Assembly (NCBI GenBank): GCA_964549935.1 | Contig: CAZJVT010000003.1 | Location: 14,634-78,633, forward strand | Origin: an uncultured Candidatus Saccharibacteria bacterium | Lineage (GTDB): Bacteria; Patescibacteriota; Minisyncoccia; UBA6257; 1-14-0-10-44-23 | Direction: 5' to 3' | DNA length: 64,000 bases | Shown here: one piece after another, positions 21,045-61,508 of the stretch | Position numbering within the stretch: position 1 is the stretch's first letter | Layout of the letters: each line of letters opens with the position of its first letter | Notes under the pieces: generated by a model | What the model was told of the DNA's origin: nothing | Seen by the model: the letters and a program-made list of their open reading frames with translations, nothing else | Databases searched by the model: none | Position numbers and translations under genes: made by a program

Positions 21045-21088
21045 GACGATAGATCCCCTGCCGGCGATGCTGCCAGCCGGCGATCGTC

Positions 21089-21715
21089 CTACAGCTCGAG
21101 GCTGCCTCCATTCCTTCTTGCTGGAACGCCGTAGTTGTCGCCGCCAACCGGAGTCCCGTGCTTATGGCCGTACCCATCATGGGGACCGTCCAGCTTCAGC
21201 GTCGGATCGATCTTCATCCTGGTCCAGGCGTTCAGGTCGACCTCCTCGATCCCGTCCTTGGTGATGGCGAAGGCGCCACCATAGAAAAGGTACCCATCGG
21301 GTCGGTCGTCGATATCCTCGATCGTCGGCGAGCTGGTCCATGAAAAGGCGATCGTGTCGGAACGATCGTGACGGATCATCCACGCCCGGATGACCTTGGC
21401 GGTGATGGAAGGCGACGGTCCGTCGTGGCCATTGCTGTAGTCCAGCGGGCGCAGGAGAAGCTCACCCTCCGCACGACGGACCGGCCAGATGCCGGTGCAA
21501 TAACGCTCGGGGTCCAACCCGACGCGATCGAGAACCTCATGGGCGCTCTCGGGAGCGAGGCAGTATTCGCCCTTCTCGTCGTACATGTCGTTCATGACCA
21601 GGGCAACCAGGTCGTCCAGCTCTTCCTTGCTGCCTCGGATGAGAACGGAAAAGGGACTATGCGTGCTCATCCACCGAGGTCCGTACTCGACATTCCTATC
21701 TGAAGGCTGGTTCAT
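21089..21715 (-). CDS. hypothetical protein (208 aa)
   Basis: Start at M183 of ORF 21089..22261 (MNQPSDRNVEY...). Last gene of the minus operon. Confidence 0.4.
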   Translation of the reverse strand: MNQPSDRNVEYGPRWMSTHSPFSVLIRGSKEELDDLVALVMNDMYDEKGEYCLAPESAHEVLDRVGLDPERYCTGIWPVRRAEGELLLRPLDYSNGHDGPSPSITAKVIRAWMIRHDRSDTIAFSWTSSPTIEDIDDRPDGYLFYGGAFAITKDGIEEVDLNAWTRMKIDPTLKLDGPHDGYGHKHGTPVGGDNYGVPARRNGGSLEL

Positions 21716-21738
21716 GTCGCTGCTCCTGGATCTCGCCT

Positions 21739-22575
21739 CTACACCATGTTCATAGCCGGAACCGGGCAGGCTCCTACCGAAGCTCGCTCCAGCTCGGAGC
21801 CTGCGATGCCTTCGGCAGGGGCCGGGACCATCCTCTCCCTCGAGATCTTCGAGCCCTTCGCCGCGGCCTTGTCGGCGATCTCGTTCAGCGGGTCCCCATT
21901 GTGCCCCTTCACCCAGCTCGCGGTCACGCTCTTGTGCCGACCGAGGGCACGATCGAGCTCCGCCCAGACGTCGAGGTTCGACTTTCGGCGGAATTCGCCG
22001 GTCATCGTCTTCACCAGATACTGGCTGTCCGAGACGAGCTTCACGGTGCAGTCGTCCGGCAGCATCTCGAGGGCATAGACGGCGGCGAGGACCTCGCCCC
22101 GCTGGTTGGTCGAGGTGCCGATCGGTACCGAGAAGACAGGCCGCTCGGAGATCTCGATGAAGCGGCCCGCGCCCTCGTACGAGAAGACGATGCCGCAGCC
22201 AGAGGGGCCTGGGTTCCCCGGCCCGACGGATCCGTCGACATGGATCGTGTAGCCGCCCCACTGGAGCTTGGCGTGACCGGAGATCGCATCGCGAATGGCC
22301 AGGATGTCGTCGGCAAGCTTTGGCGGCGCCGGCGGCTTCGGCTCGGGATGCGTCAGGACCACCGGGCGGTTCCCGGCCGACAGGGCGCGCAACGCAAGCT
22401 CGCCACCGAAGGCGCCGCGGAACGCCTGGCGCACCTGGGGATTGGCGCTGACCGCATGGCCGAGGGCGCGCTCGAGCGTATCGCGGACAATGCCAAGGTC
22501 GCTCGCCGGATCGATCTCCTTGGCGTCGGAGATCCGGCTGCAGACGATGTCGATCAGGCGGTTCGGGGCGATCAT
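21739..22575 (-). CDS. RNase HI-domain protein with about 140-aa N-terminal extension
   Basis: The C-terminal half reads GCGIVF...TNQRGEVLAAVYALE...KLVSDSQYLV...WVKGHNGDPLNEIADKAA, matching the DEDD catalytic pattern of RNase HI. Confidence 0.6.
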   Translation of the reverse strand: MIAPNRLIDIVCSRISDAKEIDPASDLGIVRDTLERALGHAVSANPQVRQAFRGAFGGELALRALSAGNRPVVLTHPEPKPPAPPKLADDILAIRDAISGHAKLQWGGYTIHVDGSVGPGNPGPSGCGIVFSYEGAGRFIEISERPVFSVPIGTSTNQRGEVLAAVYALEMLPDDCTVKLVSDSQYLVKTMTGEFRRKSNLDVWAELDRALGRHKSVTASWVKGHNGDPLNEIADKAAAKGSKISRERMVPAPAEGIAGSELERASVGACPVPAMNMV

Positions 22576-22590
22576 GTCGGTGATCCTCGA

Positions 22591-23259
22591 TTAGAGCGAT
22601 GGGCCGGAAGTACCAGCTGCGCCAGGCTGAGAGTGGTCCGGAAGCCGGTTGCCGAGACGCATCTCCTGCGGCAGCAGGTAGTACAACGAGGGCTCGAGGC
22701 CGACCTGGGCCTCCGGGAAGCTGACCGGCCAGAAGTCGACACTGGCGAGAGTCTTTGCCAGGTCGCTCAATGTCTGCACGCGGTAGCCGGTCGGCGTCAC
22801 CATGACGACGCCGCCCTGCGGACTGCGATCATCGTACTCATCGATGGGTGGTCGACCGGCGAAGGTGAAGACCACCTTGTTGCCCGTTTCCCTCGTGTGT
22901 TTCCACATGACCAGGGAGAGCAGCCTGGCGAGCGCTTCCGCATCGCCACCATCCTCGTGCGAGCCAAGCACGACAACGTCGCACTGGTGCTCTTTCAGAT
23001 GGGAATGGAAGCCGGACACGCCGAAGAATCTGGCATGCTCGAGGAGACCGACGCTTCTCAGCGCCTGCAGATCCCCATCGTATGCCTTCGTCTTGCGGAA
23101 CTCGCGTAGACAGAGCTCATCGTCATGGCCGTGGATTCGGCAGGCCGCTCGCCAGTCGGACAGGATGCGGCCAAGGCGAACCAGCTCAATGCGCGCCTGA
23201 AGGCCCCATCTCAATTCGAAGTCGAAGGTGCAAGCTGCCAGCTGCCGGCGTACGTCCAT
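22591..23259 (-). CDS. hypothetical protein, tandem paralog family 5 (member b)
   Basis: Shares FDFELRWGLQARIELVRLGRILSDWR...LSLVMWKHTRETGNKVVFTFA...GGVVMVTPTGYRVQTL with the gene at 23288. Confidence 0.45.
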   Translation of the reverse strand: MDVRRQLAACTFDFELRWGLQARIELVRLGRILSDWRAACRIHGHDDELCLREFRKTKAYDGDLQALRSVGLLEHARFFGVSGFHSHLKEHQCDVVVLGSHEDGGDAEALARLLSLVMWKHTRETGNKVVFTFAGRPPIDEYDDRSPQGGVVMVTPTGYRVQTLSDLAKTLASVDFWPVSFPEAQVGLEPSLYYLLPQEMRLGNRLPDHSQPGAAGTSGPSL

Positions 23260-23287
23260 GGCTTGGTTCCTTTCCTTCGCGTCCGGA

Positions 23288-24001
23288 TCAGGGTTGCGGA
23301 GCGAGACCGCGGGACTTGGTCAGGCGCCGTTCGGACTCTGCGATCAGCTCATCCGGAAGCCTGTATGAGGCGGCCGGTCGCAGGACGATGGCGGCGTCGT
23401 CATCGAGCCAGAAGTCGTGCTCGCGGATCTGATCGGACAGGTGCTGGAGCGTCTGGATGCGGTAACCGTTGATCGTGATCATCGCGACGCCGCCCTTGGC
23501 GCTTGCATCCTGCACATCGTCGAGGAAATGCCTCTCGGCGAAGGTGAACACCAGCTTGCCGCCGGTCTCCTTCGGGTGCCGGCACATGACCAGCGAAAGC
23601 AGCCGGGCGAGCGACTCGACATCGGGCCCGTAGTCGGCGGAGAGTTCGACCTCGTCGTGCTCTCGCTCCTTCGAGTGCAGGGTGATGACGTCGCCGGATG
23701 CCGCAACCTCCGCCGGCTTCCTGGGGCTCATCTCCTCGAACGTCTTCACGCCGAGGCGAAACCGCGAATAGTCGAAGAGCCCGACGCTCTTCAGAAGCGA
23801 GACATCCTCGTCGGTTACGGTGAGATAGGTGCGGATGTTGCGAAGGGCGTCATCGGGGCCATCGATGCGGCTCCACCGACAGGCATATCGCCAGGACGAG
23901 AGGATCTGACCGAGACGAAGGAGCTCCTCGCGCGCGGCGAGACCCCACTTCACGTCGAAGCAGAAGTGGCCGATGATCGGACGCTGCAAGAGCGACGACA
24001 T
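23288..24001 (-). CDS. hypothetical protein, tandem paralog family 5 (member a)
   Basis: Start at M91 (MSSLLQRP), with a TGATG overlap with the upstream gene. Shares FCFDVKWGLAAREELLRLGQILSSWR...GGVAMITINGYRIQTL with member b. Confidence 0.45.
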   Translation of the reverse strand: MSSLLQRPIIGHFCFDVKWGLAAREELLRLGQILSSWRYACRWSRIDGPDDALRNIRTYLTVTDEDVSLLKSVGLFDYSRFRLGVKTFEEMSPRKPAEVAASGDVITLHSKEREHDEVELSADYGPDVESLARLLSLVMCRHPKETGGKLVFTFAERHFLDDVQDASAKGGVAMITINGYRIQTLQHLSDQIREHDFWLDDDAAIVLRPAASYRLPDELIAESERRLTKSRGLAPQP

Positions 24002-24696
24002 CACGCGAACTCTAGGGATCGAGTCTTCACCGGAGCCTTTCCGGGAAAAGCGTCCGGCACCACGGACTCGTCGAGACCAAGGGCGCGAAAGAGCCCTCGC
24101 ACTGCGATGCCGACATCGGCACCACGCTCGATATCCGCCTTGAGGCCGTTCCACCAGATCGTCTGGTCGTCGATCACCAATCCACGATGTCCCGACTTCA
24201 TGGCGGCGACGAAGGTGAGAAGAACGACGAGCTCCATGCCTTCCTGCATGCCGGCGACGTCCCAGCTCCACCGCATGTGGCCGCCATCAGGAACGCCCCG
24301 GTCCGGGATCTCCACCGTCGACGTGTCGAAGCCGACGCTTCGGACCTGGACACCCGGATGGCACGGGGCGATCTCGATCTCGCAACGCTTGCTGTCGTCG
24401 TCCGGGCGATCGCTCTTGAAGACGATGCGGACGATGCCTTCGCGGCGCGGACGACCCGAGATCTCCCAAGCCTTGGCATTCAGGAACGGCACCCGTGCCT
24501 TCGCCGGATCGATGCCGTCGGCCGGATAAGGCCAGGGATCGCTCTTCACCAGGTTCTTGAAGGTGATGAAGCCGTTCTCCTCAAGGGCCCGGAGCGTGTC
24601 AGGCGTGACCAGGGAGGCATCGCCGTTGCGCCGGTCGGCCACCCACTTGATGGCGTTCAGCTGGGGCTGGGGAAGCTGGATCTGGGGAGTGGACAT
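24001..24696 (-). CDS. hypothetical protein (231 aa)
   Basis: Composition is coding-like and spacing within the operon is tight. Confidence 0.45.
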   Translation of the reverse strand: MSTPQIQLPQPQLNAIKWVADRRNGDASLVTPDTLRALEENGFITFKNLVKSDPWPYPADGIDPAKARVPFLNAKAWEISGRPRREGIVRIVFKSDRPDDDSKRCEIEIAPCHPGVQVRSVGFDTSTVEIPDRGVPDGGHMRWSWDVAGMQEGMELVVLLTFVAAMKSGHRGLVIDDQTIWWNGLKADIERGADVGIAVRGLFRALGLDESVVPDAFPGKAPVKTRSLEFA

Positions 24697-24717
24697 GTTC
24701 GAGATTCCTGCTGGGGA

Positions 24718-25668
24718 TCAGACCAAGGGGCCGGTGTAGATGGATGGGTAATCCGTCGTCGCATCGGGCTGCGTTTCGGCCTTCTTCTCCGCCTCGACGC
24801 GCATTTCGGCGAAGGCGATGACGCGCTCGACCACCTCGAGGCGATCGAGGTTGGCGTGGTAGGCACCAACGCCGGCGACCGAGACCAGCTCCGCATCTGT
24901 CGGCGGAAGGTGGGATTTCATCGCGACCGCGAATTCACGAATCGTCGGCCATACCCTGCCCTCCTCAACGAAGGCAGCGGATACCCTGTCGACGTTGCGG
25001 CCTTCCGTCGCTGCGATCGCCTCGATGTCCCCGTTCATGACAGAGCGGTGCGCGGTGTTGACGAAGCCGATTTCGCCGGCGATGTCGTAGAGCCGCTCGA
25101 CATAGCCCCAGATCGGATGACCGGGGTCGATGTCAGTGCCGATCCGGACCCGCTCGGCCTCGATCCCGATGACATCGGAGATGAGGTCCTCGTACGTCCG
25201 ATGGAGGATCCCACTCTGTCGCACGATCGTCGTGCCGATCACCGGGCCGCTGCTCCAGTCGCCGTCCCAGTTGATGACCAGGGGCTCGCGCCTGTCGGTC
25301 GCGCACATGGCCCCGCGGAAGATCTCGAGCACCGGATCGAAGTTGGCCATGGTGTAGATCTGCTCGGCATCGACCTGGATGACGCGGCCGTCGTCGACGA
25401 TCTTCAGCTTGGGGAAGGCCATGGGCTCGCGCCGAACGCCGAGCTTATCGGAGGCGCCGCCGAGGAGATCGTGGAAGCCGGCGAACTCGAGGCCCGCGCG
25501 CGCCTTGAGCGCGATCTCGTCGCCGCGCTCCAGGTCGCTGCGGAACTTCGTAAGCGTCGTCGTGTACCCGCCACCCGGCTGGGCCGACATCCACAGGCCA
25601 AGCATGCGCATCAGCACGGCACGCTGTTGCGGTGTCCAGTCCAGGTCGAAGGAGAGCGGGCTGAGCAT
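24718..25668 (-). CDS. hypothetical protein, tandem paralog family 6 (member b)
   Basis: Start at M24 avoids a 56-nt overlap with the upstream gene. IDPGHPIWGYVERLYDIAGEIGF aligns with LEPGDKIWGDIGHLCELVGTFE of member a. Confidence 0.45.
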   Translation of the reverse strand: MLSPLSFDLDWTPQQRAVLMRMLGLWMSAQPGGGYTTTLTKFRSDLERGDEIALKARAGLEFAGFHDLLGGASDKLGVRREPMAFPKLKIVDDGRVIQVDAEQIYTMANFDPVLEIFRGAMCATDRREPLVINWDGDWSSGPVIGTTIVRQSGILHRTYEDLISDVIGIEAERVRIGTDIDPGHPIWGYVERLYDIAGEIGFVNTAHRSVMNGDIEAIAATEGRNVDRVSAAFVEEGRVWPTIREFAVAMKSHLPPTDAELVSVAGVGAYHANLDRLEVVERVIAFAEMRVEAEKKAETQPDATTDYPSIYTGPLV

Positions 25669-25681
25669 CGGTTTCGTCCGA

Positions 25682-26563
25682 TCAGTGTGACGGGGATGGC
25701 GAAGAAGGCTTGATGCGGCTTCCGGCATAGGCGGCAACCCGCTGGAACATCTCGGTGCGACGCACCTGGGCCATGGGGTGTTCGGTGCTGCCTTCGTTCG
25801 GCTGCTCCAGAGCGTGCTCGGCGATCGCCTTGACCACCGGCCAGACCCGATCCGGTGAGAGGTTCTTCAGTTGGTCGACGTCGCGGCCGCCGCGCCTCGC
25901 CAGATCCTCGAGATCCATGAACTCGCGCAGCTCGACATCCGGATCCCGGGACTCGAATGTCCCGACGAGCTCGCATAGATGGCCGATGTCGCCCCAGATC
26001 TTGTCGCCGGGCTCGAGATCCTGGCCCATCTGGACGCGCAGTGAGACGCCGGTCGCTTCCGCCTCGAGCCAGTCATGCGTCGTCATCCGGCGGATCTCGG
26101 AGCGGGTGACGAGAGCCGCAGCGCCGCCCGTCTTCGTCTGCCATTCCAGGCGGACCGGCTCTTCGACATCGGTGAGGCGCATCGCCATCTGGATCATCGG
26201 CAGGAGGCCGTCGACGCCATGCGAATGGCCGATGTCCTCGGAGCGGATGGCCAAGACGTCCCGTCCGTCGAGCTTCTCGGTCTCGCACCAGACGCCGATC
26301 GAGGTGCGATAAACCGAGTGTTTCGCCTCGGCGCGGTCGAGAAGCTTCGCGTGACCGAGAGCGAGAAGCCCCTGCTTCGCCAACTTCGCCGAGAGCTGGA
26401 CATCCGGCTTATTGTCGTTGCGGATCTCGGCCTCGAGCTGCTCGATCGCACGCACGGTCTCGGCCGAGGTGTTGCACGCATATTCGTGGAAGCGGATCAT
26501 TCGCTGCAGAACCAGCATCGGGATCGGCTTCCAGGAGAGCGTGAACTTGAATCGCGTTGCCAT
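25682..26563 (-). CDS. hypothetical protein, tandem paralog family 6 (member a); ends ...SSPSPSH
   Basis: Starts 10 nt after the dnaE stop and is the first gene downstream of the polymerase. Confidence 0.45.
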   Translation of the reverse strand: MATRFKFTLSWKPIPMLVLQRMIRFHEYACNTSAETVRAIEQLEAEIRNDNKPDVQLSAKLAKQGLLALGHAKLLDRAEAKHSVYRTSIGVWCETEKLDGRDVLAIRSEDIGHSHGVDGLLPMIQMAMRLTDVEEPVRLEWQTKTGGAAALVTRSEIRRMTTHDWLEAEATGVSLRVQMGQDLEPGDKIWGDIGHLCELVGTFESRDPDVELREFMDLEDLARRGGRDVDQLKNLSPDRVWPVVKAIAEHALEQPNEGSTEHPMAQVRRTEMFQRVAAYAGSRIKPSSPSPSH

Positions 26564-26572
26564 CTATCGCCC

Positions 26573-29500
26573 CTAAGCCGCCTTGAAATCCTGGGAGCGC
26601 GCTTCCACCGCCGGCGCCGAAGTGGCGATCTCGACGATCCGCACCTCGGTCACGCCCGGGATGCGTCGAAGCGACTTCCAGACCTCGGGTGTCGGATCGA
26701 AGCGCCCGTCGGCGAGCTCGCTGAGATAGGTGCCGGACTGCCAGATCCTGAACTCGACCTCGCGTACCATCCCCGCATGCCGGCGGACCGGCATCGGGCG
26801 CGGTTGCGGCCTGGTCTGCTCTTCCGGCGGCGGCGCCTGCTCGCGAAGAAGCTTGAAGCTTCCCTTCGGCTTTGCCGGGGGCTGGGGCGCGATCGGCGTC
26901 AGGGGTTCGTGCGGGCGCTGCAGCGTCGACGGGAGCGGTTCCGGCGCCTCCACCTTCCAGGCAGTCAGCGTCGCCAGGACCTCCGCCGCGGTCTTCTCGG
27001 TCGCCACGGTTACCTGCATCCGGCCGGCCTGGTGCTCGAGGGACAGGTCCTCGATCGCCGCGACCTTGGAGATCGTCAGGCGCAGCCGTTCGTCATCGAC
27101 GCGGCCGCGGATCGAGCAGACGATCGGCACCGTGTTGCCTTCGCCGATCCCGGTATGGAGACGCCTGAGGTCGTCGACGACGGAGTCGAAGGCGAGAGCC
27201 TCGAAGATGCCGGTATCGTCGGAGATGGAGACGATCCAGAACGGCTTGCCCGCCGTCGTCGTGCGTTCCTTGTAGCCAAGGACGATGCCGGCCACCCGGA
27301 TGTCGCGGTTGGGGGCCTGGGCGACGACGATCGGCAGGCGCTCTGCCTTGATCGACTTGAAGCGCTCGAGAAGAGATTCGTACGCAAGGATCGGGTGACG
27401 GGACAGGAAGAAGCCGATGTGCTCCCGTTCCTGCTTCAGGCGCTCGTTCTCCGACCAGTCCTGAGTCGGCTGCAGCACGAGGCGATGCCCTTCATTCCTG
27501 GGCGCCACTGCCTTGGCGAGACTGGGCGCTTCCGGCAAGGCGAAGAGATCGAGCGTGCGGGCGTCGCGCTTGGCGGAAGCTTTTTTCGATCCCGAACCGC
27601 GGAACTTGGAAACGACGTCCGCATTGGCGGCGATCTCGGCCGAATTCGCATGCAGAGGCGAGAAAGCCCCTACCGAGGCGAGGATCGTCACGTCCTTCGA
27701 CGACAGCCGCGTCGCCTGGCCGGCTCCCGGGGCCGAGCCGACGCGCCAGGCGAAGTCCTCGAGGGATGCGAACGGGCCGTTGGCGGCGCGCTCGGAGACC
27801 AGGTGCGACATCGAGACGTCGCCAAGGCCCTTCACCGCACCGAGGCCGTAACGGATCGCGAGCTTGCCCTCGTGCATCTCGGGCAGGAAGGCGACTGCGG
27901 ACTTGTTGACGTCGGGCGGCAGCAGCTGGATGCCCATCCGGCGGAGCTCGCCGGCGAAGACCGCGAGCTTGTCGGTGTCGCCGCGGTCGTACGACATCGA
28001 GGCGGCCATGAAAGCGACGGGATGGTTCGCCTTCATCCAGGCGGTCTGGTACGAGATCAGCGCGTAGGCGGCCGCGTGGCTCTTGTTGAAGCCGTAGCCC
28101 GCGAACTTGTCGACCTGGTTGAAGACCTTCTCGGCGGTCTCGCGGTCGACACCGTTCCCGACCGCGCCGTCGATGAAGGTCTTCCGCTGCGCGTCCATCT
28201 CGGCCTGGATCTTCTTGCCCATGGCCCGGCGCAGGAGGTCGGCGCCGCCGAGCGAGTAGCCGGCGAGGACCTGGGCCATCTTCATCACCTGCTCCTGGTA
28301 GACAGGGATGCCGAAGGTCTCGGCCAGGACGGGCTCGAGGGATGGATGCAGGTAGGCCGGCGACTGCTCGCCCCGCTTGCAGGCAATGTAGTCCGGGATG
28401 TTCTCCATCGGACCCGGCCGATAGAGGGCGACGATCGCGATGATGTCCTCGAGGCGATCGGGCTTCATGCGGAGGAGGATGTCGCGCATCCCGCCCGACT
28501 CGAGCTGGAAGACGCCGGTGACGTCGGCCCGCGCCATGAGCTCGTAGGTCCTGGCGTCGTCCAGCGGGATGTCCGAGATGTCGATGTCCTCGCCGGTGCC
28601 GGCCTTCACCAGGCGCGCCGCCATCTGCAGCACCGACAGGGTCTTCAGGCCGAGGAAGTCGAACTTCACCAGGCCGGCCTGCTCGACCCACTTCATGCTG
28701 TACTGGGTCGCCGGCGTATCCGACTTCGGGTCCTGGAACAGCGGCACCAGGTCGACCAGGGGGCGGTCCCCGATGACGACGCCGGCGGCATGGGTCGAGG
28801 CGTTCCGGTAGAGGCCCTCGACCCGGCCGGCGATGTTGAATAGGCGTCCCGCCTGGCTGTCGCGCTTCGCCAGCTCGGCCAGCCGCGGATCCCCGTCGAC
28901 GGCCTGGGCAATCGAAACCGGTGCGGCGGGGTTGTTCGGGACCAGCTTGGCGATCGCATCGACGGACCCGTAGGGCATTCCGATGACGCGACCGACGTCG
29001 CGGATCGCGGCGCGCGCCTTGAGCGAGCCGAAGGTGATGATCTGCGCCACCCGGTCGGCGCCGTAGCGCTCGCGGACGTAGCGGATGACCTCGTCCCGGC
29101 GGTCCTGGCAGAAGTCGATGTCGAAGTCCGGCATCGACACGCGCTCTGGGTTGAGGAAGCGCTCGAACAGCAGGCCCCAGCGAAGCGGATCCAGGTCGGT
29201 GATGGTGAGGGACCAGGCGACGACCGACCCGGCGCCCGAGCCGCGGCCCGGCCCGACGGGAATGTCACGCGCTTTCGACCACTGGATGAAGTCCGAGACG
29301 ATGAGGAAGTAGCCGGCGAAGCCCATCTGGTTGATGACGCCGATCTCGTACTCGAGGCGATCGCGATAGGGCTTCGCCTCAGCCAGGGATTTCGCGTCCT
29401 CGCCCCCGATGCCCATCCGCTGCAGGCGGGCTTCGAGGCCCTTCCTGGAACGGATCGAGAGTTCGTCCTCCTCGCTCCGTCCCTGCTCGGTCGGGAACCG

Positions 29501-30376
29501 AGGAAGGATGGGCTTTCGCTTCGGCGGCCTGAAGGCGATGCGGCGCGCGATGCCGCGGGCGTTCTCGATCGCCTCCGGCAGGTCGGCGAAGAGCTCCTCC
29601 ATCTCGGCCGTCGACTTGAAGCGGTGGTGCTCCGTCAGCCGCGGACGATCCGGATCCGCAAGGGTCCGGCCGGAAGCGATGGCCAGCAGGGCCTCGGTCG
29701 GCTCCTGCATCTCGGCGAAGGCGAAGTGGACGTCGTTGGTGGCGACCAGGGGCAGGTCGTTGGCGTAGGCGAGATCGAGCAGCTGGGCCTCGATCCGCGG
29801 CCGGTCATGGCCAGGATGGCGCTGGATCTCGATGTAGAGGCGATCGCCGAAGGCGGCTTTCAGCTGACGGAGATGCTCCTCGGCCTGTCCCGGGCGATTT
29901 TCGGCGATCAGGCGCCCGAGAGTGCTGTCGGTGGCGCCGGCGAGGCAGATCAGTCCGTCGGAGGAATTCTGGATTTCGCTCAGGGGGACCTGGGGGACCT
30001 GCCCCGGCGATCCGAGGTATCCCTTCGAGGAGAGCGACATCAGGTTCTGCCAGCCCGCCTGGGTCTGGGCCAGCAGGAGCAGGCGGTCAGGAGCGATCGG
30101 CGGGGCCGACTTGCTTCCCCTGGCCAAGGCAGCCGCCTGGATCTGGGCGGCGTCCGGCCTGGTCGTGCCCATCACGCATCCGACGATCGGCTGCACGCCG
30201 GCCGCCACGGCCGCCTCGGCGAATTCGAGCGTTCCGAACAGGTTTCCCGTGTCGGTGATCGCGACAGCCGGCATGCCGTTCTTCACCGCGAGCTTGACCA
30301 GGTCCTTGGGCTGGATCGCGCCCTGGGCCAGCGAATAGGCCGAATGAACCCGCAGGTGGATGAAAGGATCGGCCAC
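26573..30376 (-). CDS. dnaE: DNA polymerase III alpha subunit family (DnaE-type), 1267 aa with about 170-aa C-terminal extension beyond the OB fold
   Basis: N-terminal PHP domain (HLRVHSAYSLAQGA, AVAITDTGNLFG, GDRLYIEIQRH). An OB fold sits near residue 1000 (RVAGIVLGYKERTTTAGKPFWIVSISDDTG). The start is GTG. DnaE1 versus DnaE2 cannot be distinguished here. Confidence 0.85.
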   Translation of the reverse strand: MADPFIHLRVHSAYSLAQGAIQPKDLVKLAVKNGMPAVAITDTGNLFGTLEFAEAAVAAGVQPIVGCVMGTTRPDAAQIQAAALARGSKSAPPIAPDRLLLLAQTQAGWQNLMSLSSKGYLGSPGQVPQVPLSEIQNSSDGLICLAGATDSTLGRLIAENRPGQAEEHLRQLKAAFGDRLYIEIQRHPGHDRPRIEAQLLDLAYANDLPLVATNDVHFAFAEMQEPTEALLAIASGRTLADPDRPRLTEHHRFKSTAEMEELFADLPEAIENARGIARRIAFRPPKRKPILPRFPTEQGRSEEDELSIRSRKGLEARLQRMGIGGEDAKSLAEAKPYRDRLEYEIGVINQMGFAGYFLIVSDFIQWSKARDIPVGPGRGSGAGSVVAWSLTITDLDPLRWGLLFERFLNPERVSMPDFDIDFCQDRRDEVIRYVRERYGADRVAQIITFGSLKARAAIRDVGRVIGMPYGSVDAIAKLVPNNPAAPVSIAQAVDGDPRLAELAKRDSQAGRLFNIAGRVEGLYRNASTHAAGVVIGDRPLVDLVPLFQDPKSDTPATQYSMKWVEQAGLVKFDFLGLKTLSVLQMAARLVKAGTGEDIDISDIPLDDARTYELMARADVTGVFQLESGGMRDILLRMKPDRLEDIIAIVALYRPGPMENIPDYIACKRGEQSPAYLHPSLEPVLAETFGIPVYQEQVMKMAQVLAGYSLGGADLLRRAMGKKIQAEMDAQRKTFIDGAVGNGVDRETAEKVFNQVDKFAGYGFNKSHAAAYALISYQTAWMKANHPVAFMAASMSYDRGDTDKLAVFAGELRRMGIQLLPPDVNKSAVAFLPEMHEGKLAIRYGLGAVKGLGDVSMSHLVSERAANGPFASLEDFAWRVGSAPGAGQATRLSSKDVTILASVGAFSPLHANSAEIAANADVVSKFRGSGSKKASAKRDARTLDLFALPEAPSLAKAVAPRNEGHRLVLQPTQDWSENERLKQEREHIGFFLSRHPILAYESLLERFKSIKAERLPIVVAQAPNRDIRVAGIVLGYKERTTTAGKPFWIVSISDDTGIFEALAFDSVVDDLRRLHTGIGEGNTVPIVCSIRGRVDDERLRLTISKVAAIEDLSLEHQAGRMQVTVATEKTAAEVLATLTAWKVEAPEPLPSTLQRPHEPLTPIAPQPPAKPKGSFKLLREQAPPPEEQTRPQPRPMPVRRHAGMVREVEFRIWQSGTYLSELADGRFDPTPEVWKSLRRIPGVTEVRIVEIATSAPAVEARSQDFKAA

Positions 30377-30390
30377 TGGTCGCCCGCGAT

Positions 30391-30420
30391 ATTAATCTTG
30401 TCTGCTTTCTATGATACAAG
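30391..30420 (+). promoter_or_regulatory. recurring motif copy 5: ATTAATCTTGTCTGCTTTCTATGATACAAG (contains CTTGT-N14-ACAAG inverted repeat)
   Basis: Sits in the divergent spacer between dnaE (GTG at 30376) and the plus gene at 30525. Confidence 0.5.
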
Positions 30421-30524
30421 GAGGCCAAGAAAGCGTCACGCGAAAGGTGCCAAGTGGCTGAAATTGCGGGATTGCTGTATGTGCAGCAGCAGCCCGGCGG
30501 CGACCACGGAAGGAATATGCGAGC

Positions 30525-31506: not shown

Positions 31507-31520
31507 AACGAACGTCCTTC

Positions 31521-31548
31521 ATAATATCGTGCCCGCACAGTATTATAC
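31521..31548 (+). promoter_or_regulatory. motif variant ATAATATCGTGCCCGCACAGTATTATAC in divergent spacer
   Basis: A near-duplicate lies at 34047..34073. It sits 15 nt from the leftward start at 31506 and 60 nt from the rightward ATG at 31607. Confidence 0.35.
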
Positions 31549-44638: not shown

Positions 44639-47600
44639 CTAGGCCGCCTTCTTCCTGACCGCGTCGATCATCTCGTTCACCAGCATGTCGATGACGCCGG
44701 CTTCTGCCGTGTTGCGGTCTCCGCCGGTCTCCTCGATGTCGTTCAGGCGCCGCGTGATCTCCGGAACGGCGGTCCCCCGCGGGAACCGGTTAGCCAGCAG
44801 CTGGCGGGCGTTCTTGGCGCCGACCCGCGCGGTCAGCCGGCGGCGGAGCTCGGTATCCTCGGCCGTGGTCGAGAAGGCCCAGAGCTCGATCGGGCCGATG
44901 AAATTGTAGAGCAGCTGCTCGTAGATGCCGTCCTTGGTCGAGAGCCGCGCCAGCACCGGGCCGCCATTCGGCCCCGGGCCGGTCAGGTCGCGGCGGATGG
45001 CGTTCTCGGAGGTCCGCGTCAAGCCGAAGGCCCGCACGGCCTCGCCGACGGTGTTCTCGGAGTCCGCGCCGCAGATCCAGACGCCGGATGCCTGGTCGCG
45101 CATCTGGTCGTCGAAATCCTCGAGCAGCTGCGAGATCAGGACGATCTGGATGCCCCATTTCCGGGCCTCGCGCATATCCTGCTTCACCTGGTCGCGGACG
45201 GCGTCGATGCCGCCGGTCCGGTGAAACTCGTCGAAGCAGAGCCGCTTCGGCTCCTCGCGCAGGCTGCGGATACGGGCGAGATGCCAGCCGCGGTAATTGC
45301 CGGCGAACTGCTTGGCGTCGTCCTCGCCGAAGAAGAAGTCGCGGGCAAGGACGTGGCGGGCGAGCATATACATGATGGCGGTCTGGCGCTGCGCGCTCGG
45401 GCCGCCCTTCGGCGCCACCTCGTCGAGGTCGAGCGAGCACACCCGCGCACCGCCGATGTCGAAGCGCGTCGGGTAGGCCAGGACCGGATAGTCGGCCACC
45501 GCGGACGAGATCATCCGCTGGAAGCCCTCGATGATGGTCTCACCGGTCGGGAGCTGCATCCGGCCGTAGATGTCCTCGATGTCGCGGGCGCGGACGGCCG
45601 CGTTCAGGTCGGACAGGAGCGGCAGCGCATGGCGCTGCGCCAGGCTCGCCTCGTGGATGCGGCCCTTGGCGAAGAGCGCGTCGACGACATCCCACCAGTT
45701 GGGCCGGCTCGGGAGCTGGATAGCAAGCGTATCGAGCGCCTCGTCGACCACACGATCCCGGCCTCGATCGTAGGGTGCGGCCGTGACGTCGGAGGCGCGG
45801 TTCTTGAAGGCGGCGTCGATGACCATGCCGACAAGGCCGGTCAGGCCGTCATAGGGCTTCTTCTCGCCGACTGGCGTGCAGAGCAGCGACACCAGGTTGA
45901 CCAGGAAGGCGCGCTCGGCCGGCAGCGGGAAGCGCGACCCGAGCTGGGTGTCGAACGGGTTGATCGCGAATTCAGGCGACATCTTGAGGCGCACATAGAC
46001 GGCCTCGTGCTTGCGCTCGCGGGGCAGGCCCTCCCGGCACAGCGAGACCAGTCCCTCGGACGATCGCCCGATCTCGATGATCCCGATCCGCGGGAGCGTC
46101 GGCGTCGTCGCCTTGCCGGTCTTGGGCGAGAGAATGAAGGCGAGATTCAGCGAGTTCGACAACACCGACTTGCCCTTGCCCGGCGGGGCCACGATCAGGT
46201 CATTCCAGACCGTCTGCAGCGACGAGCCCGGGTGATAGACATAGGGCTTGCCGTCCTGGGAGCGGAAGACCACGGCCCCCTGGTCCCAGGCGGAAGCTGG
46301 TCGACGGAGAGGCAGCAACGAGAACGCTTCGGCGATCGGCGCGGCCGCGGACGGAGCGGTCGAGGCGCAATCCATCGAGAGAGCCGAGGACATGACGCCG
46401 TCGAGCGGGTCGCCGGCGACGGCCGAGACCTGGCAGTTTCCCCAGCTCTCGATCGCGCGCTGCAGGACGGAGACGCGCTTGCGCGCGAGATCGACGTCGC
46501 CGGCAGGCGCCCAGGTCGAGAAGCTCGCGCGGAGGCGGACGATGGTGCGTCCTTCCAGGCTCATCGCCTTCAGCATGTCCATGGCGTTCTTGACGCGACG
46601 GGTGTCCGTCGAGGCCCAGACGAAGATCGAGGCGACGGTTGCGGAGAGCGCGAGCGTCGCAAGCCCGCCGCCTTCGATGAGGAAGCTGGCACGCCAGGGG
46701 ATGCCGTGGCCTTCCGAGAGGCGAGTCAGCAGCTGCTCGAACGGGCGGAGCTCTTCGGGAGCCAGCGTCATGTCGACGCCGCCGAAGATGAGGTCTCCCA
46801 CCCGGATCAGGGTTCGGTCGATCGCTTCGGCGTCCTGCGTCAGGATCTGATGAGAGAGCGTCGGCCACAGCACGTCGGAGACGTCGGGCTTGAAGCCGGC
46901 GGCCTTGCTCAGGCGATCGCCGGCGCCGCGGCTGACCTTCGAAAGCAGGCCGAGGCGGGATCCTTTCCGGGCTCCGGACGATGCCATCTCGAGCGCCTTG
47001 TCGACATCGCCGACCAGGTCGTCCATCAGCCGGGCCGGAACCTTGTCTCCTGGCAGATACGGCCGCCAGCCTGACTCGGCCATGCTCGGGTAGATGGCGC
47101 CGCGGGCGCTGACGAGGGCGTCGTGCGCGTCGAGGACGCGGACCTTGAAGCCAAGGCTGGTCAGGTCGCCGGAGAGACGCTCGACGAAGGACGAATGGCG
47201 CTCCCGCAGCCCGTCGATGGCCCGCAGCATCCACTGCGCATCGGTAGCCAGGGGCGCCTTGGCGGCTTCCGCGGCGGTTCGCTTCGCGGACTCGGAGATC
47301 TCGACCTTGGAGAGCAGGGCCGCGCGGGACCACAGCACCAGGAAGCAGCCTTCCCAGACGGTCTTCGTCGGCAGGATGCGCTGGCGTTCGGCGAAGAGGT
47401 CCTCGAGGTCCAGGCCGGCGTCCCTGGCGGCGCGGCGCGCCAGCTTCAGCGAGGCGCCGACCTCGGACGAGGCCCGCAGCGGGTCGCGCGAGAACCAGAC
47501 CTGGATCGCATGGCCCTTGTTCTCGAGGAAGGGAGATGTGTTGGTGACGAACTTGTCGAAGACCGCGCCCCATTCCTCCTGGTCCAACATCTGGCGCATG

Positions 47601-47746
47601 CCATCGAGGCGGAGCATCGTCACCAGGGACCCGTCCCGGGCGACGAGCGTCCGGGCGTCGTCGGCCGTCTCGATCCGGCAGTAGTCCGCCAGGCTCTGGC
47701 GCGAGAACGACCCCAGAACGGCGGTGAGACGGTCGAGGAGATGCAT
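44639..47746 (-). CDS. IcmB/DotO/TraU-like type IVB secretion ATPase (1035 aa)
   Basis: Length matches DotO/TraU (about 1010 aa). A P-loop VAPPGKGKSV is mid-protein and a VirB4-like ATPase fold sits in the C-terminal half. The neighbourhood holds DotG-, DotI- and DotP-like genes. Confidence 0.75.
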   Translation of the reverse strand: MHLLDRLTAVLGSFSRQSLADYCRIETADDARTLVARDGSLVTMLRLDGMRQMLDQEEWGAVFDKFVTNTSPFLENKGHAIQVWFSRDPLRASSEVGASLKLARRAARDAGLDLEDLFAERQRILPTKTVWEGCFLVLWSRAALLSKVEISESAKRTAAEAAKAPLATDAQWMLRAIDGLRERHSSFVERLSGDLTSLGFKVRVLDAHDALVSARGAIYPSMAESGWRPYLPGDKVPARLMDDLVGDVDKALEMASSGARKGSRLGLLSKVSRGAGDRLSKAAGFKPDVSDVLWPTLSHQILTQDAEAIDRTLIRVGDLIFGGVDMTLAPEELRPFEQLLTRLSEGHGIPWRASFLIEGGGLATLALSATVASIFVWASTDTRRVKNAMDMLKAMSLEGRTIVRLRASFSTWAPAGDVDLARKRVSVLQRAIESWGNCQVSAVAGDPLDGVMSSALSMDCASTAPSAAAPIAEAFSLLPLRRPASAWDQGAVVFRSQDGKPYVYHPGSSLQTVWNDLIVAPPGKGKSVLSNSLNLAFILSPKTGKATTPTLPRIGIIEIGRSSEGLVSLCREGLPRERKHEAVYVRLKMSPEFAINPFDTQLGSRFPLPAERAFLVNLVSLLCTPVGEKKPYDGLTGLVGMVIDAAFKNRASDVTAAPYDRGRDRVVDEALDTLAIQLPSRPNWWDVVDALFAKGRIHEASLAQRHALPLLSDLNAAVRARDIEDIYGRMQLPTGETIIEGFQRMISSAVADYPVLAYPTRFDIGGARVCSLDLDEVAPKGGPSAQRQTAIMYMLARHVLARDFFFGEDDAKQFAGNYRGWHLARIRSLREEPKRLCFDEFHRTGGIDAVRDQVKQDMREARKWGIQIVLISQLLEDFDDQMRDQASGVWICGADSENTVGEAVRAFGLTRTSENAIRRDLTGPGPNGGPVLARLSTKDGIYEQLLYNFIGPIELWAFSTTAEDTELRRRLTARVGAKNARQLLANRFPRGTAVPEITRRLNDIEETGGDRNTAEAGVIDMLVNEMIDAVRKKAA

Positions 47747-58105: not shown

Positions 58106-59413
58106 CTACTTCCTCTCACCCTGCGTCACGGGCTCGACGAAGATCATGCCGAGCTCGAGGCCCGGGTCAATCGTCACCGTCGGCTTCATCGAGCGCGCGT
58201 CGGCCTTGATGTCGCTGGCGATGGTCTTTCCGACCTCGCCGATGCCGGCCGCGACCGCGGTGCGGCTGGACGAGGACCCGTAGCTCGTGGTCGAACCGCC
58301 GAGAGGGTTCACGATCACGGTCTTGCCGGAGTTCGCCGCGATGTCGGCGAAGCCCGCGACGAAGCTGCCGGCCAGCGATGCCGCATAGCGCCAGTAGTGA
58401 TGGTCGACGTCGGAAGCAAGGCCGGACCGCGCGGTCGCGGGGTCGACGGCAAAGGCCGACGTCTTGTAGCTGCGGCCGTCCTTGAGCGTGATGGTGGTGA
58501 ACTGCAGCACCAGGACGTCGACGGAGTCCTTCTGCTCGAAATTGCCGATCATGCGCGCCCCCTTCAGGGGACCCGCCTCGAGCTCGGCGAGCACGGGCGA
58601 CGAGACGTCGGAACGCGCGCCGGTGATGAGGCGTGCATAGACGATGGTGCCGGCCGGGATCAGGACCTGGCCGCCCTGTCCTTGCGCGGTTCCTGCCTGT
58701 CCTGCCGCCTGGGACAACGCCTGCGCAGTCGGCGGAACCGCCTGGCCCCCGATCGTTCCCGAAAGCGGCTGCGCGCCCGGGCCGCCGGACGTCCGTTCGT
58801 TCTGACTGGCGACGACCACGGAGGGCTTCAGCTTCCAGCTGTCGAGGAGTGCCGCGGTCTGCGCCTTCATGGCGGCTACCAGCTGCTCGTCGCCCCGCAT
58901 TCCTGCCGGAATGGGCTCGGGCTGCTGCACCGCCCGGACCTGCGCCGTGGTCTGTGCCTGGACCGGTCGGGGCTCCGCCTGGCGCAGGGTCGACTGGAGG
59001 GGCGACGCCTCGGGCTTCACCTCGAGGGCCGATTGGGTATCGACCCGCGAAGAGACGCCGACGGTCGCGACCGCGCTGCGCCCGGTTTCCTGGGCACGGT
59101 CCGCCCTGTCCTGGTTGTCCTTGGACATCGCCTGCTGATAGGCCGGGGAGCTTGCCTGCTGGGCACCTCCCGGTACCGACCGCATGTCGGTCGCCTGGAC
59201 CAGGCTCGACGGAGGAGCGGAGCTGGTGCCGAGAGCCGCGAATGCCGCGACGCCGCCGACGATCAGGACCGCGGTGCCGCCAAAGAAGAGCAAGAGACGC
59301 GATCGTCCATCGGAAACGGCATGCGCCAGGCGCGCCCGAAGCTTCGGCGGCCGCGGTACGACAGGATCCGTAGCCGGACCGAGCGACGGTGCGTTGTCGT
59401 TGGGCTCGTTCAT
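58106..59413 (-). CDS. DotG/IcmE/TraO/VirB10-family protein (435 aa from M44)
   Basis: An N-terminal TM (LLLFFGGTAVLIVGGVAAFAAL) is followed by a Q/A-rich linker and a C-terminal beta-rich domain (LIPAGTIVYARLITGARSDVSSPVLAEL...VLVLQFTTITLKDGRSYKTSAFAVDP). This is the VirB10/TrbI fold pattern. Confidence 0.6.
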   Translation of the reverse strand: MNEPNDNAPSLGPATDPVVPRPPKLRARLAHAVSDGRSRLLLFFGGTAVLIVGGVAAFAALGTSSAPPSSLVQATDMRSVPGGAQQASSPAYQQAMSKDNQDRADRAQETGRSAVATVGVSSRVDTQSALEVKPEASPLQSTLRQAEPRPVQAQTTAQVRAVQQPEPIPAGMRGDEQLVAAMKAQTAALLDSWKLKPSVVVASQNERTSGGPGAQPLSGTIGGQAVPPTAQALSQAAGQAGTAQGQGGQVLIPAGTIVYARLITGARSDVSSPVLAELEAGPLKGARMIGNFEQKDSVDVLVLQFTTITLKDGRSYKTSAFAVDPATARSGLASDVDHHYWRYAASLAGSFVAGFADIAANSGKTVIVNPLGGSTTSYGSSSSRTAVAAGIGEVGKTIASDIKADARSMKPTVTIDPGLELGMIFVEPVTQGERK

Positions 59414-59625
59414 CGGATCATCGCCTTTCCACCGCCCTTGCGCGTCAGCCAGCGGCGCTGCTGGCGGCTGACGCCGCTGGGGATATCCATGCCGTGCGCC
59501 GGCGCCTTGGGCGCTTGCTGCGGGACGAGGGCGGAGCTGCACACAGTCGCAAGGATCTGCGACATGAGGACGTGACGGCCGGCGCCACCGACCACGTAGA
59601 CGATCTTCTGCTCGGAATCCGCCAT
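59410..59625 (-). CDS. small protein (71 aa) translationally coupled to the DotG-like gene
   Basis: ATGA overlap with the downstream start. Start at M15 (MADSEQKIVYVVGGAG...). Confidence 0.35.
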   Translation of the reverse strand: MADSEQKIVYVVGGAGRHVLMSQILATVCSSALVPQQAPKAPAHGMDIPSGVSRQQRRWLTRKGGGKAMIR

Positions 59626-59634
59626 AGTCGATCC

Positions 59635-59663
59635 GGTTAATCCTGTCTGCCTCTTATGATACA
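59635..59663 (+). promoter_or_regulatory. recurring motif copy: GGTTAATCCTGTCTGCCTCTTATGATACA (plus orientation inside minus-strand cluster)
   Basis: Lies 10 nt from the leftward start at 59625. No convincing plus gene sits downstream. Confidence 0.45.
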
Positions 59664-59746
59664 TCAACAGGAGAAGCGGCGCCAGGACAGCCCTGGGTTA
59701 TCGACGGTTCCGGAGAAGATCGTCGAGATGCGAACGGCTTCGCGGC

Positions 59747-59968
59747 TCAGGGAGACGGATCGGCGTCTGCCTCTTCGCCCCCGCCATGCTCCAGCACCTC
59801 TTCGGCTTCGCTCGAGGCGAGAAGCGCCGTCCGCTGATGCGGCTCCATGAGATCCCAGGCTTTTCGGAGCAGCGACTGCAGGTCGCCGACCTCGTGATCA
59901 GGTTCGCTGTCCTGACCGTGCCGCTCGGCCGCGGTGATAAGGCCCTCGATCCCTGGTTCTTCCGGCAT
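59747..59968 (-). CDS. small acidic protein (73 aa)
   Basis: ATG lies 8 nt after the upstream stop. The sequence is Glu/Asp-rich. Confidence 0.3.
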   Translation of the reverse strand: MPEEPGIEGLITAAERHGQDSEPDHEVGDLQSLLRKAWDLMEPHQRTALLASSEAEEVLEHGGGEEADADPSP

Positions 59969-59975
59969 GGAGATC

Positions 59976-61043
59976 TCAGTTGCCCGCGGATTCCGAGCTG
60001 GCTGCCGGGGCCTGGCGCTGCTGCGCGGTCGCGGGACCGGCAATGCGGATCGGCTGGTTGGGGACCTGTGTCGGCCCTGCCTGCTTCGCCGCGGTCTTCG
60101 GGGTGTCGGTCAGCCTGACGCTGACCTGCCTTCCCTGGTCCGAGGCGAGGACGACCGGCGTATCAGGCAGCTGGTAGACCGTGTAGCCGCCGGATCCCGC
60201 CACCGACGCAAGCCACGACGGGGACAGCAGCGTCATCTGCGTGCGCAGGTAGACGTAGCCGCCGAAAGACCAGGCGCGACCGGAGCCGGCGCCGAGGAAA
60301 AGCGGTTGCGCTCCCTCCGGGGGTGTCCCGTCGAGGAACGACATCAGGATGGGGTTGCCGGTTTCTGGGGCCCGGGGCTGGATGATCGGCGCCTGCGCGT
60401 TCGGGCCGCGTGCCTGGATCCGGAAAGAGACCTGCGCATCGGTTGCCGGCATTCCGGTGTCCATCGCGAGCGACACCGTCAACGGCATCGACGCCTTCTC
60501 GAGGATCACCCCGATGTTCGTGGTGCCGTGATAGACCTGGGGCGTCACCGAGATCGCATTCGACCCGTCGCCCATGGTCATCACCTGGATGCGATCGGCG
60601 TTCCCGACCACGACCTTGAGCACCGGCCACTGCTGTCCGGTGGTGTCGTAGAAGGCCAGCATCGAGACATGGTTGGCGCCGAGGCGCACGACCGGGATCC
60701 GGGCGCCGGGCTCGAGCGAGACGTCCTCCGAGCGGCTTTCCGGCTTCGGAGCGGGGCCGGGCGGCTGGGCGGCCTGCTTCTGGCCCTGGTCCAGGATCCG
60801 GCGGAGCTCCTTGATCTGTTGCGGCGAGAGCGGGAGGACCGAGTCGGTCGTCGCCTTGAAGGCTTCGTCACGGATATCCGGCGGCGGCGGCAGCCTGTCG
60901 GACGGGGCGGCCTGAGACGCGGATGGGACCGCGGGCGCCGCCGCCTGGGCCAGCGCATCGACCGCGGCCAGCGCCAGCGCCGCGCCAAGCGCGGACGCGG
61001 CGAGGATCGAAAAGGCTGGTCTGGATCGCATCGTCGGCCCCAT
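59976..61043 (-). CDS. secreted protein (355 aa), possibly DotH/IcmK/TraN-like by position
   Basis: Signal peptide MGPTMRSRPAFSILAASALGAALALAAVDALAQA. It sits between the DotI-like and DotG-like genes, as in I-type systems. Confidence 0.4.
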   Translation of the reverse strand: MGPTMRSRPAFSILAASALGAALALAAVDALAQAAAPAVPSASQAAPSDRLPPPPDIRDEAFKATTDSVLPLSPQQIKELRRILDQGQKQAAQPPGPAPKPESRSEDVSLEPGARIPVVRLGANHVSMLAFYDTTGQQWPVLKVVVGNADRIQVMTMGDGSNAISVTPQVYHGTTNIGVILEKASMPLTVSLAMDTGMPATDAQVSFRIQARGPNAQAPIIQPRAPETGNPILMSFLDGTPPEGAQPLFLGAGSGRAWSFGGYVYLRTQMTLLSPSWLASVAGSGGYTVYQLPDTPVVLASDQGRQVSVRLTDTPKTAAKQAGPTQVPNQPIRIAGPATAQQRQAPAASSESAGN

Positions 61044-61076
61044 GGATTGACCCTTCGATGATACCCCGATCCGCGG

Positions 61077-61123
61077 CCTTATGCACCTGCTTGTGCATGA
61101 TGCATAAGGCCGGGCAAAAAAAA
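61077..61123. repeat. inverted repeat CCTTATGCA-N15-TGCATAAGG followed by A8 tract
   Basis: Reads ccttatgcacctgcttgtgcatgatgcataaggccgggcaaaaaaaa. It is a local AT-rich patch in the spacer between two T4BSS-like genes. Confidence 0.5.
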
Positions 61124-61498
61124 TCAAAGGACGCCCTGGGACACGAGCTGGTCGCGAAGGAAGACCGCGGTGTCGCAGACCGGATCCGGGCACTTGTCCA
61201 GGTGCGCCTTGAGCCTGGCCGTATCGACGATGCCGATGCCGTCCAACTCCATCTCCCAGACTTGCAGGGCCGTGAACGGCGCCTCTTCCGCCTGCGGCGC
61301 CTCGAGGGTCTCGATCGTCTCCGGCGCATAGAAGGCCGAGGCGGGCGCGCCGGCATACTCGCCGGCGCCGATCGTCAGCGGGACCGGGCTCAAGGGGGAG
61401 CGGATCGCCTTGGTGCCATCGACCAAGCGCGTCGTGAGGACGAGGGTGGTAGCCATCTGGGTATTCTCCTTGGGCTTTTCTGGTGCGAAGTGGAACAA
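61124..61498 (-). CDS. hypothetical protein (124 aa)
   Basis: Begins 8 nt after the DotI-like stop. Confidence 0.35.
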   Translation of the reverse strand: MFHFAPEKPKENTQMATTLVLTTRLVDGTKAIRSPLSPVPLTIGAGEYAGAPASAFYAPETIETLEAPQAEEAPFTALQVWEMELDGIGIVDTARLKAHLDKCPDPVCDTAVFLRDQLVSQGVL

Positions 61499-61508
61499 GT
61501 GGATGGCC

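Follow-up and report, generated by a model that had tools for sequence, protein, structure and literature searches.

We describe a 64-kb stretch of contig CAZJVT010000003.1 (hereafter the window; ~65% GC, with all open reading frame (ORF) coordinates below given as window positions), in which a gene for the alpha subunit of DNA polymerase III, dnaE, heads a tightly packed cluster of eight minus-strand genes in the neighborhood of Dot/Icm-type transfer genes. In our assessment, this dnaE cluster is likely to be an element-borne replicase module on a Dot/Icm-type conjugative element (a probability of about 70%). As the DnaE lies inside a conjugative element, with an RNase HI fusion and a series of ORFans behind it, the element is likely to supply part of its replication machinery itself. 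Such an element-borne replicase is uncommon but not without precedent, with C-family replicases of mobile elements already known as a class. The genes of the cluster, from dnaE onward, are as follows.

26573..30376, minus strand: dnaE, DnaE1-type DNA polymerase III alpha subunit, 1267 aa, GTG start (from Pfam and NCBIfam)
25682..26563, minus strand: g2, 293 aa, ORFan, paralog of g3 (from blastp)
24718..25668, minus strand: g3, 316 aa, ORFan, paralog of g2 (from blastp)
24001..24696, minus strand: g4, 231 aa, ORFan (family and PDB sequence searches empty)
23288..24001, minus strand: g5, 237 aa, ORFan, paralog of g6; its start overlaps the g4 stop by 1 nt
22591..23259, minus strand: g6, 222 aa, ORFan, paralog of g5
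21739..22575, minus strand: g7, RNase HI fusion, 278 aa (from PF00075)
21089..21715, minus strand: g8, 208 aa, ORFan

An earlier inspection of the letters and their translated ORFs (the sequence-only reading) had proposed these eight ORFs, and all of them are found, between 21089 and 30376, each adjoining the next with gaps of at most 28 nt (9, 13, 21, -1, 28, 15, and 23 nt in the order from dnaE to g8). An independent gene caller, applied to three 100%-identical Logan contigs, returned the same models for the genes after dnaE (293, 316, 231, 237, 222, 278, and 208 aa). No AT-rich islands were detected by our scan within 21089-30376, and a pattern scan gave no minus-strand terminator-like site upstream of g8, the sole such site, at 21368-21349, lying inside g8 itself. 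A candidate terminator can be read from the sequence in the 44-nt gap between the convergent genes at the end of the cluster; it has no T-run, and is thus not called by the pattern scan:

21045..21088, no strand assigned: GC-rich hairpin (GACGATCGCCGGC...GCCGGC...ATCGTC), candidate terminator

The spacing, the lack of internal AT-rich islands, and the synteny with a sister element discussed below are all consistent with dnaE heading a putative eight-gene operon.

The polymerase has full DnaE1 architecture, with the Pfam domains PHP, DNA_pol3_alpha core, finger, HHH_6 (helix-hairpin-helix, HhH), and OB in this order. The protein scores 1334.9 bits against the curated DnaE1 equivalog model NF004226 of NCBIfam (cut-off 1002), which it passes, and 598 bits against the ImuC/DnaE2 model NF004225 (cut-off 939), which it fails. 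This distinction bears on whether we are looking at an error-prone or translesion polymerase cassette, similar to the plasmid-borne imuA-imuB-dnaE2 or mucAB. In a published survey, only 3% of C-family polymerase genes were on plasmids, two-thirds of these being DnaE2 (PMC3919608), and mutagenic cassettes are common on alphaproteobacterial plasmids (PMC9426580); the feature in common with the imuA-imuB-dnaE2 cassettes is a C-family polymerase on a plasmid at the head or the end of a small operon. The window gene is, however, of the DnaE1 type by the models just described and lacks ImuA/ImuB partners, with no RecA-like or Y-family domains in g2-g8, which makes a translesion cassette very improbable. 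The sequence-only reading had likewise seen no imuA/imuB-like, dnaN, dnaQ, or housekeeping neighbors, and we recovered none in the ORFs scanned across the window.

The catalytic aspartates (D401, D403, and D555 in E. coli) are kept, within MPDFDIDF and VKFDFLGL in the alignment with the E. coli protein. We also defined 233 columns that are invariant among 21 chromosomal DnaE1 proteins, 10 of which (4.3%) are altered in the window DnaE, as compared to 2.5-6% in lone members of other alphaproteobacterial orders and 14-19% in the DnaEs of a plasmid clade described below. With so few invariant columns altered, this DnaE looks like a working replicase rather than a decaying copy. It is of the DnaE1 type, not ImuC/DnaE2, and is catalytically intact as judged by its sequence.

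The C-terminal extension to which the sequence-only reading had drawn attention does not hold up as a novelty. While 163 aa do follow the OB match (the earlier estimate was about 170), some 85 of these make up the ordinary DnaE1 C-terminal domain, and the terminal segment (VREVEF...RRIPGVTEVRIVEI) matches up with the C-terminal end normally found in alphaproteobacterial DnaE1 (EVEVAL...AIKSLPGIVDARDI). The surplus length comes from proline-rich, low-complexity insertions (~61 aa in total) that split this standard domain in the alignment, from a 19-aa tail, and from ~14 aa in the HhH-OB linker. On this alignment, the C-terminal domain is retained, though interrupted, and a new domain has not been added.

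The nearest relatives of this protein are found on chromosomes. In a search of 5.8 billion clustered proteins, with matches ranked by bit score such that short fragments of close relatives would be hidden, the sole match above 56% identity is the window DnaE itself, encoded on a single NCBI contig 224,460 bp in length, and the next 119 matches listed are chromosomal DnaE1 proteins of Rhodospirillales-like Alphaproteobacteria, at 50-56%. Over 984 ungapped columns, the identity is 57-60% to this Rhodospirillales-like clade (63-91% within the clade), as compared to 50-54% for Rhizobiales, Rhodobacterales, and Sphingomonadales and 44% for E. coli. In a simple neighbor-joining (NJ) tree, the window DnaE branches next to the sampled Rhodospirillales-like clade as its sister (85 of 100 bootstraps), and its terminal branch is ~2 times the usual length. 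The best explanation of these data is that the gene was captured from an alphaproteobacterial chromosome, sister to the Rhodospirillales-like lineages. Compared to chromosomal DnaE1 from Alphaproteobacteria and E. coli, the domain order, the catalytic aspartates, and the position of the clamp motif are alike; the differences are an identity of 53-56% (BLASTP) to the nearest of them, a C-terminal domain made longer by ~80 aa through proline-rich insertions and a tail, Thr in place of Gln in the clamp motif, and a location at the head of a row of ORFans in a conjugative element, not among cellular genes. One candidate for the dnaE of the host itself (P0004) was rejected, as it derives from a different sample.

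The DnaE-like replicases of phages (PHROG 405, found for example in Streptomyces phages) are also C-family replicases of mobile elements, and their profile matches the window DnaE with an E-value of 1.8e-285. The identity is, however, 41% at best, below that to chromosomal DnaE1, and the window contains no phage structural or packaging genes, its context being conjugative.

That context is defined in the first place by the following transfer genes, located 14-28 kb from dnaE.

44639..47746, minus strand: TraU/DotO-like type IV secretion system ATPase, 1035 aa, 39-44% identical, across 99% of its length, to proteins from plasmids with an I-type mating-pair formation system (MPF_I)
58106..62159, minus strand: DotG/TrbI-like, DotH/IcmK, and DotI/IcmL genes (Pfam TrbI 5e-17, DotH_IcmK 1.8e-67, DotI_IcmL 5e-44)

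Overall, the transfer proteins of the window show 33-44% identity to those of MPF_I conjugative plasmids of Alphaproteobacteria, and 3222 of the 3783 records matched by the TraU-like ATPase are typed as conjugative. Pfam and NCBIfam scans recognized no housekeeping families in the 64 kb, nor any relaxase, coupling protein, or oriT, and no tRNA genes or Rfam features are present in the window. The best explanation is that the window lies in a large Dot/Icm-type (MPF_I) conjugative plasmid, or integrative and conjugative element, of a high-GC alphaproteobacterium.

The control sequences tie dnaE to this element. A 14-nt motif, wTAATCyTGTmTdC (motif 1), has 12 matches at ≤2 mismatches across the window, as compared to 1.1 expected; nine of them, between 2.2 and 59.6 kb, are found in AT-rich islands and precede the start of a gene in the same orientation by 20-130 nt:

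2243, 10592, 16287, 20132, 30392, 40744, and 59637, plus strand, and 47770 and 56114, minus strand: motif-1 copies

The motif is probably the standard promoter or operator of the element, and its recurrence on both sides of dnaE places the gene inside one regulatory neighborhood. We note that the 5' half of the motif resembles a TATAAT-like -10 element, often with CTTTCT ahead of it.

The start of dnaE itself borders on one of these islands:

30375..30435, no strand assigned: AT-rich (low-GC) control region, from which dnaE and the plus-strand gene at 30525 diverge

The motif-1 copy here (30392-30405) does lie 15 nt from the dnaE GTG, as the sequence-only reading had it, but is on the plus strand, pointing away from dnaE and aimed at the gene at 30525. 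On the minus strand, the region contains a sigma-70-like GTGACG-17-TATCAT, as well as a box, TAATATCGCGGGCGACCAGT, at 30394..30375, the last two bases of which are the first two of the dnaE GTG start. The box (consensus TAmTATCGyGnnCGCnnAGT; minus strand 30394-30375) has plus-strand copies at 31522-31541 and 34046-34065, which are embedded in a 39-nt repeat (31509-31547 and 34033-34071, 79% identity); its statistics are weak, with 8 of 100 shuffles yielding three matches at ≤3 mismatches. There is no Shine-Dalgarno sequence before the GTG, and a leaderless or near-leaderless dnaE mRNA is thus plausible, as far as can be inferred from the start region.

Precedent comes from the megaplasmids of related systems. 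Among the PLSDB plasmids, DotG-DotH-DotI have a DnaE1-like gene at a distance of 1-6 kb on the Methylobacterium extorquens AM1 megaplasmid (NF004226 1065 bits; L009 20913-24860, equal to NC_012811.1 680912-684859), on Bosea pANAM02 (L010 and L013, the gene spanning the record origin and adjoining a helicase, RusA, and dnaQ), on Bosea RAC05, and on Rhizobium leguminosarum pRlX5 (L012), and the 268-kb MPF_I plasmid of Acidiphilium multivorum JZ-6 (L014) contains a divergent helicase-dnaE pair. The DnaE1-like proteins of AM1, pANAM02, pRlX5, and JZ-6 are 1230-1330 aa long. The hosts of the dnaE-bearing megaplasmids also have a chromosomal dnaE. Besides a DnaE1-type gene of full length on an MPF_I element, these megaplasmids have in common with the window DotG/H/I, the TraU-like ATPase, and a 799-aa protein; they differ in that their dnaE is convergent with DotG/H/I, stands beside a helicase in pANAM02 and JZ-6, and is not accompanied by homologs of g2-g8. 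The AM1, pANAM02, and pRlX5 proteins, which were those placed in the tree, form a clade of their own, with 48-50% identity to each other and 43-45% to the window DnaE, and the NJ tree puts the latter with chromosomal alphaproteobacterial DnaE1, outside the megaplasmid clade. This points to a separate, independent capture, such that alphaproteobacterial MPF_I elements have acquired DnaE1-type genes at least two times. Our literature search on plasmid-borne DnaE1 and the AM1 megaplasmid dnaE found no paper describing Dot/Icm-linked DnaE1 genes.

Turning to the genes downstream, the RNase HI fusion proposed from the sequence was borne out, with the RNase HI domain at residues 109-248 of the 278 in g7 (PF00075 E 1.5e-21). 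In comparison to E. coli RNase HI (E 3e-18), all catalytic residues (D, E, D, H, and D) are aligned, and the domain is thus active-looking as far as its sequence goes. The N-terminal domain of ~108 aa is common only to one other protein, P0126 (78% identity), all other matches covering the RNase H part alone. In E. coli, too, RNase H genes neighbor those of Pol III core subunits, as rnhB ends 36 nt upstream of dnaE and rnhA and dnaQ form a divergent pair; the RNase H of the window differs in that it is of type 1, has a unique N-terminal domain, and lies downstream of dnaE past five ORFans.

Both paralog pairs suggested earlier are significant by blastp, namely g2/g3 (26% identity, E 1.5e-15) and g5/g6 (44% identity, E 7e-45). 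The downstream unknowns, which the sequence-only reading had singled out for checking, were searched by sequence, profile, hhalign, and fold, and a family assignment was not obtained. The six ORFans (g2, g3, g4, g5, g6, and g8) match no Pfam, PHROG, NCBIfam, or PADLOC model, nothing meaningful appears in Pfam at E-values up to 10, and PDB sequence searches with g2, g4, and g8 gave no match below E 0.3. A g5/g6 profile run against 1.84 billion representatives returned only g5 and g6 themselves, together with one repetitive 935-aa protein, which we read as spurious because its match is confined to profile positions 28-52. Locus scans with g5/g6, g2, and the DnaE tail found no relative in the GTDB genome set, JGI metagenomes, or IMG/VR. 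The pairs show weak similarity to each other by hhalign (g2/g3 vs g5/g6, E 1.6e-3; g5/g6 vs g8, E 7.6e-4). AlphaFold2 models are mediocre (pLDDT 64.7 and pTM 0.67 for g5, pLDDT 55.7 for g2), with a common order of beta, long alpha, helical insert, beta-beta, alpha, beta-beta-beta, and alpha in g5 and g2. Fold searches with these models gave no PDB match, and nothing in BFVD for g2; the weak BFVD matches of the g5 model (E 0.007-0.02, TM 0.28-0.45) include several phage proteins annotated as "YubB ferredoxin-like domain" (DUF1281). We also considered a clamp or clamp-loader subunit identity for the 220-320-aa paralogs, which was rejected, there being no P-loop, family match, or fold match.

The cluster downstream of dnaE is preserved in a diverged sister element, represented by a 10.3-kb Logan contig (L018, from ERR14949497), which was the best contig with P0126. 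The sister element (also on L019-L021) is found only in the runs ERR14949485, 86, 96, and 97, which are different sequencing runs. L018 starts with a truncated g2/g3-family paralog at the contig end, followed by the orthologs of g2 (66%) and g3 (59%) with a 177-aa g2/g3 paralog between them, two tandem g4-family genes (42% and 59%), the orthologs of g6 (50%) and g5 (74%), and the RNase HI fusion (77%). The gene g8 is absent, replaced by two unrelated small genes, after which come convergent orthologs of the genes at 17967-20038 of the window. Between window and L018, dN/dS ranges over 0.26-0.55 (g2 0.41, g3 0.46, g4 0.31, g6 0.55) at a dS of 0.6-0.9, which indicates that g2-g7 are real coding genes under relaxed purifying selection. 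From this gene order, the ORFan families expand and contract by tandem duplication.

The same comparison raises the question of whether dnaE is passenger cargo, that is, a chromosomal gene acquired fairly recently that by chance heads an older ORFan/RNase HI operon, with no dedicated role in replication or transfer. The protein is nearest in sequence to chromosomal DnaE1, and in the sister element the gene immediately before the g2 ortholog is not dnaE, both of which would fit such a history. On the other hand, the 1267-aa frame is intact and only 4.3% of invariant positions are altered despite the long branch, which implies sustained purifying selection, and related MPF_I megaplasmids recurrently acquire and keep DnaE1-like genes. 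We therefore regard passenger cargo as quite improbable.

Several of our observations nonetheless weigh against an element-borne replicase module. In the position of the internal beta-clamp motif (Qxx[LM]F), the window DnaE reads TLDLF, with Thr for Gln; the Gln is also missing in Azospirillum (IGNLF) and Bosea pANAM02 (TGDLF). Among the proteins of the window, we recognized neither a helicase or primase nor a DnaQ, clamp, or Rep protein, and no convincing iterons or tandem repeats mark an origin near dnaE. The g2 ortholog of L018 is directly preceded by another g2/g3 paralog, not by dnaE, with the contig ending there, such that the dnaE-g2 junction is not conserved in the sister element. Furthermore, the constraint on the DnaE equals that on genuine chromosomal replicases, which would also fit the only copy of its host, and alphaproteobacterial dnaE sometimes lies on secondary replicons (in Azospirillum, Cereibacter, and others).

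These last points would also fit an unlikely alternative, in which the gene is the own, and possibly the only, replicative dnaE of a host from an alphaproteobacterial lineage of order level that has not been sampled; the gene would then be carried by a chromid or be the neighbor of an integrated conjugative element. The score above the curated DnaE1 equivalog cut-off, a constraint at invariant positions like that of lone members of other orders, and a place in the tree as the sister of an entire order-level clade and not inside it would all be expected of such a gene, as would the secondary replicons just mentioned. Against this, there is no housekeeping gene in the 64 kb, element genes and the element-wide promoter motif lie on both sides, and seven element-specific genes are closely packed behind dnaE. 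Our control, the host dnaE that Azospirillum carries on a chromid, looks quite different, being monocistronic among fliI, fliJ, ctrA, and che genes. In addition, the lack of any relative above 56% identity among the 5.8 billion proteins is unusual for a chromosomal gene, and the precedent is set by megaplasmids whose hosts have a chromosomal dnaE. The sequence-only reading had left both the host and the element-borne assignments open; the Dot/Icm context, the absence of close relatives, and the megaplasmid precedent now give better support to the latter.

If the cluster is indeed an element-borne replicase module, the alpha subunit would dock on the beta clamp and clamp loader of the host and replicate the DNA of the element, either vegetatively or in complementary-strand synthesis after transfer, and the RNase HI fusion would remove RNA primers or R-loops at the element fork. 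The products of g2/g3, g4, g5/g6, and g8 may be fast-evolving, tandemly duplicating, element-specific accessory or host-interaction proteins, and a promoter in the AT-rich island at 30.38-30.44 kb may drive the expression of the entire cluster together, perhaps on an mRNA without a leader. A bolder version, which we hold to be distinctly doubtful, is that of a Dot/Icm-type lineage with a private replicase, comprising DnaE1 and the RNase HI fusion with g2-g6 and g8 as novel polymerase accessory subunits or host-replisome adaptors; such an element would replicate, or finish its complementary strand on entry, independently of the Pol III of the recipient, and might copy modified DNA, given the 5-hydroxymethyldeoxyuridine (5-hmdU) kinase-like gene listed below.

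The rest of the window encodes further genes with recognizable families, including two paralogous metallophosphatases and a DUF1194 protein, with most other ORFs remaining without a family; the four loci listed here, with anti-defense-type genes among them, add to the mobile-element context of dnaE:

78-899, plus strand: AlkB-like 2-oxoglutarate- and Fe(II)-dependent oxygenase, at the left window end
7969-9732, plus strand: AbiEii nucleotidyltransferase toxin (PF08843) and an adjacent putative antitoxin-sized gene
49418-49906, minus strand: homolog of Acb1, which counters the cyclic-oligonucleotide-based antiphage signaling system (anti-CBASS), among the transfer genes (PF23474 E 6e-26)
57234-58100, minus strand: helical domain of 5-hmdU DNA kinase (HMUDK_hel), 288 aa (PF18723 E 3e-48)

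The PF18723 protein belongs to a family of phage thymidine hypermodification and is encoded inside the Dot/Icm cluster, where its gene comes immediately after the DotG-like one; neither a kinase domain nor any partner enzymes for it were seen in the window. Diverged paralog pairs occur at 16303-17217/20154-21044, 6811-7374/7403-7958, 32149-32958/33094-33783, and 31049-31162/31984-32097, and include two calcineurin-like metallophosphatases with 72% nucleotide identity over 248 nt. Four plus-strand gene boundaries (6152-6172, 11947-11967, 12816-12836, and 19170-19190) carry the same junction, GGAGATGTCGCCATGA, which joins a Shine-Dalgarno-like GGAG with an ATGA stop/start overlap in a conserved translational-coupling cassette. 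Finally, a long plus-strand ORF at 53893-56088 is an Arg-rich antisense artifact. In its place, the gene caller of the sequence collection puts a minus-strand gene of 623 aa at ~54202-56073, with a copy of motif 1 ahead of it.

The general assumption is that conjugative plasmids depend on the Pol III holoenzyme of their host. The constrained DnaE1 found here, together with a distinct DnaE1-like clade on megaplasmids, suggests that there has been repeated selection for element-borne replicases in the MPF_I elements of Alphaproteobacteria. If this DnaE does act in the replication or establishment of the element, this would bear on host range, on copy-number control, and on the cost of megaplasmids, and the AM1 megaplasmid would then provide a tractable system for studying an element-borne replicase.

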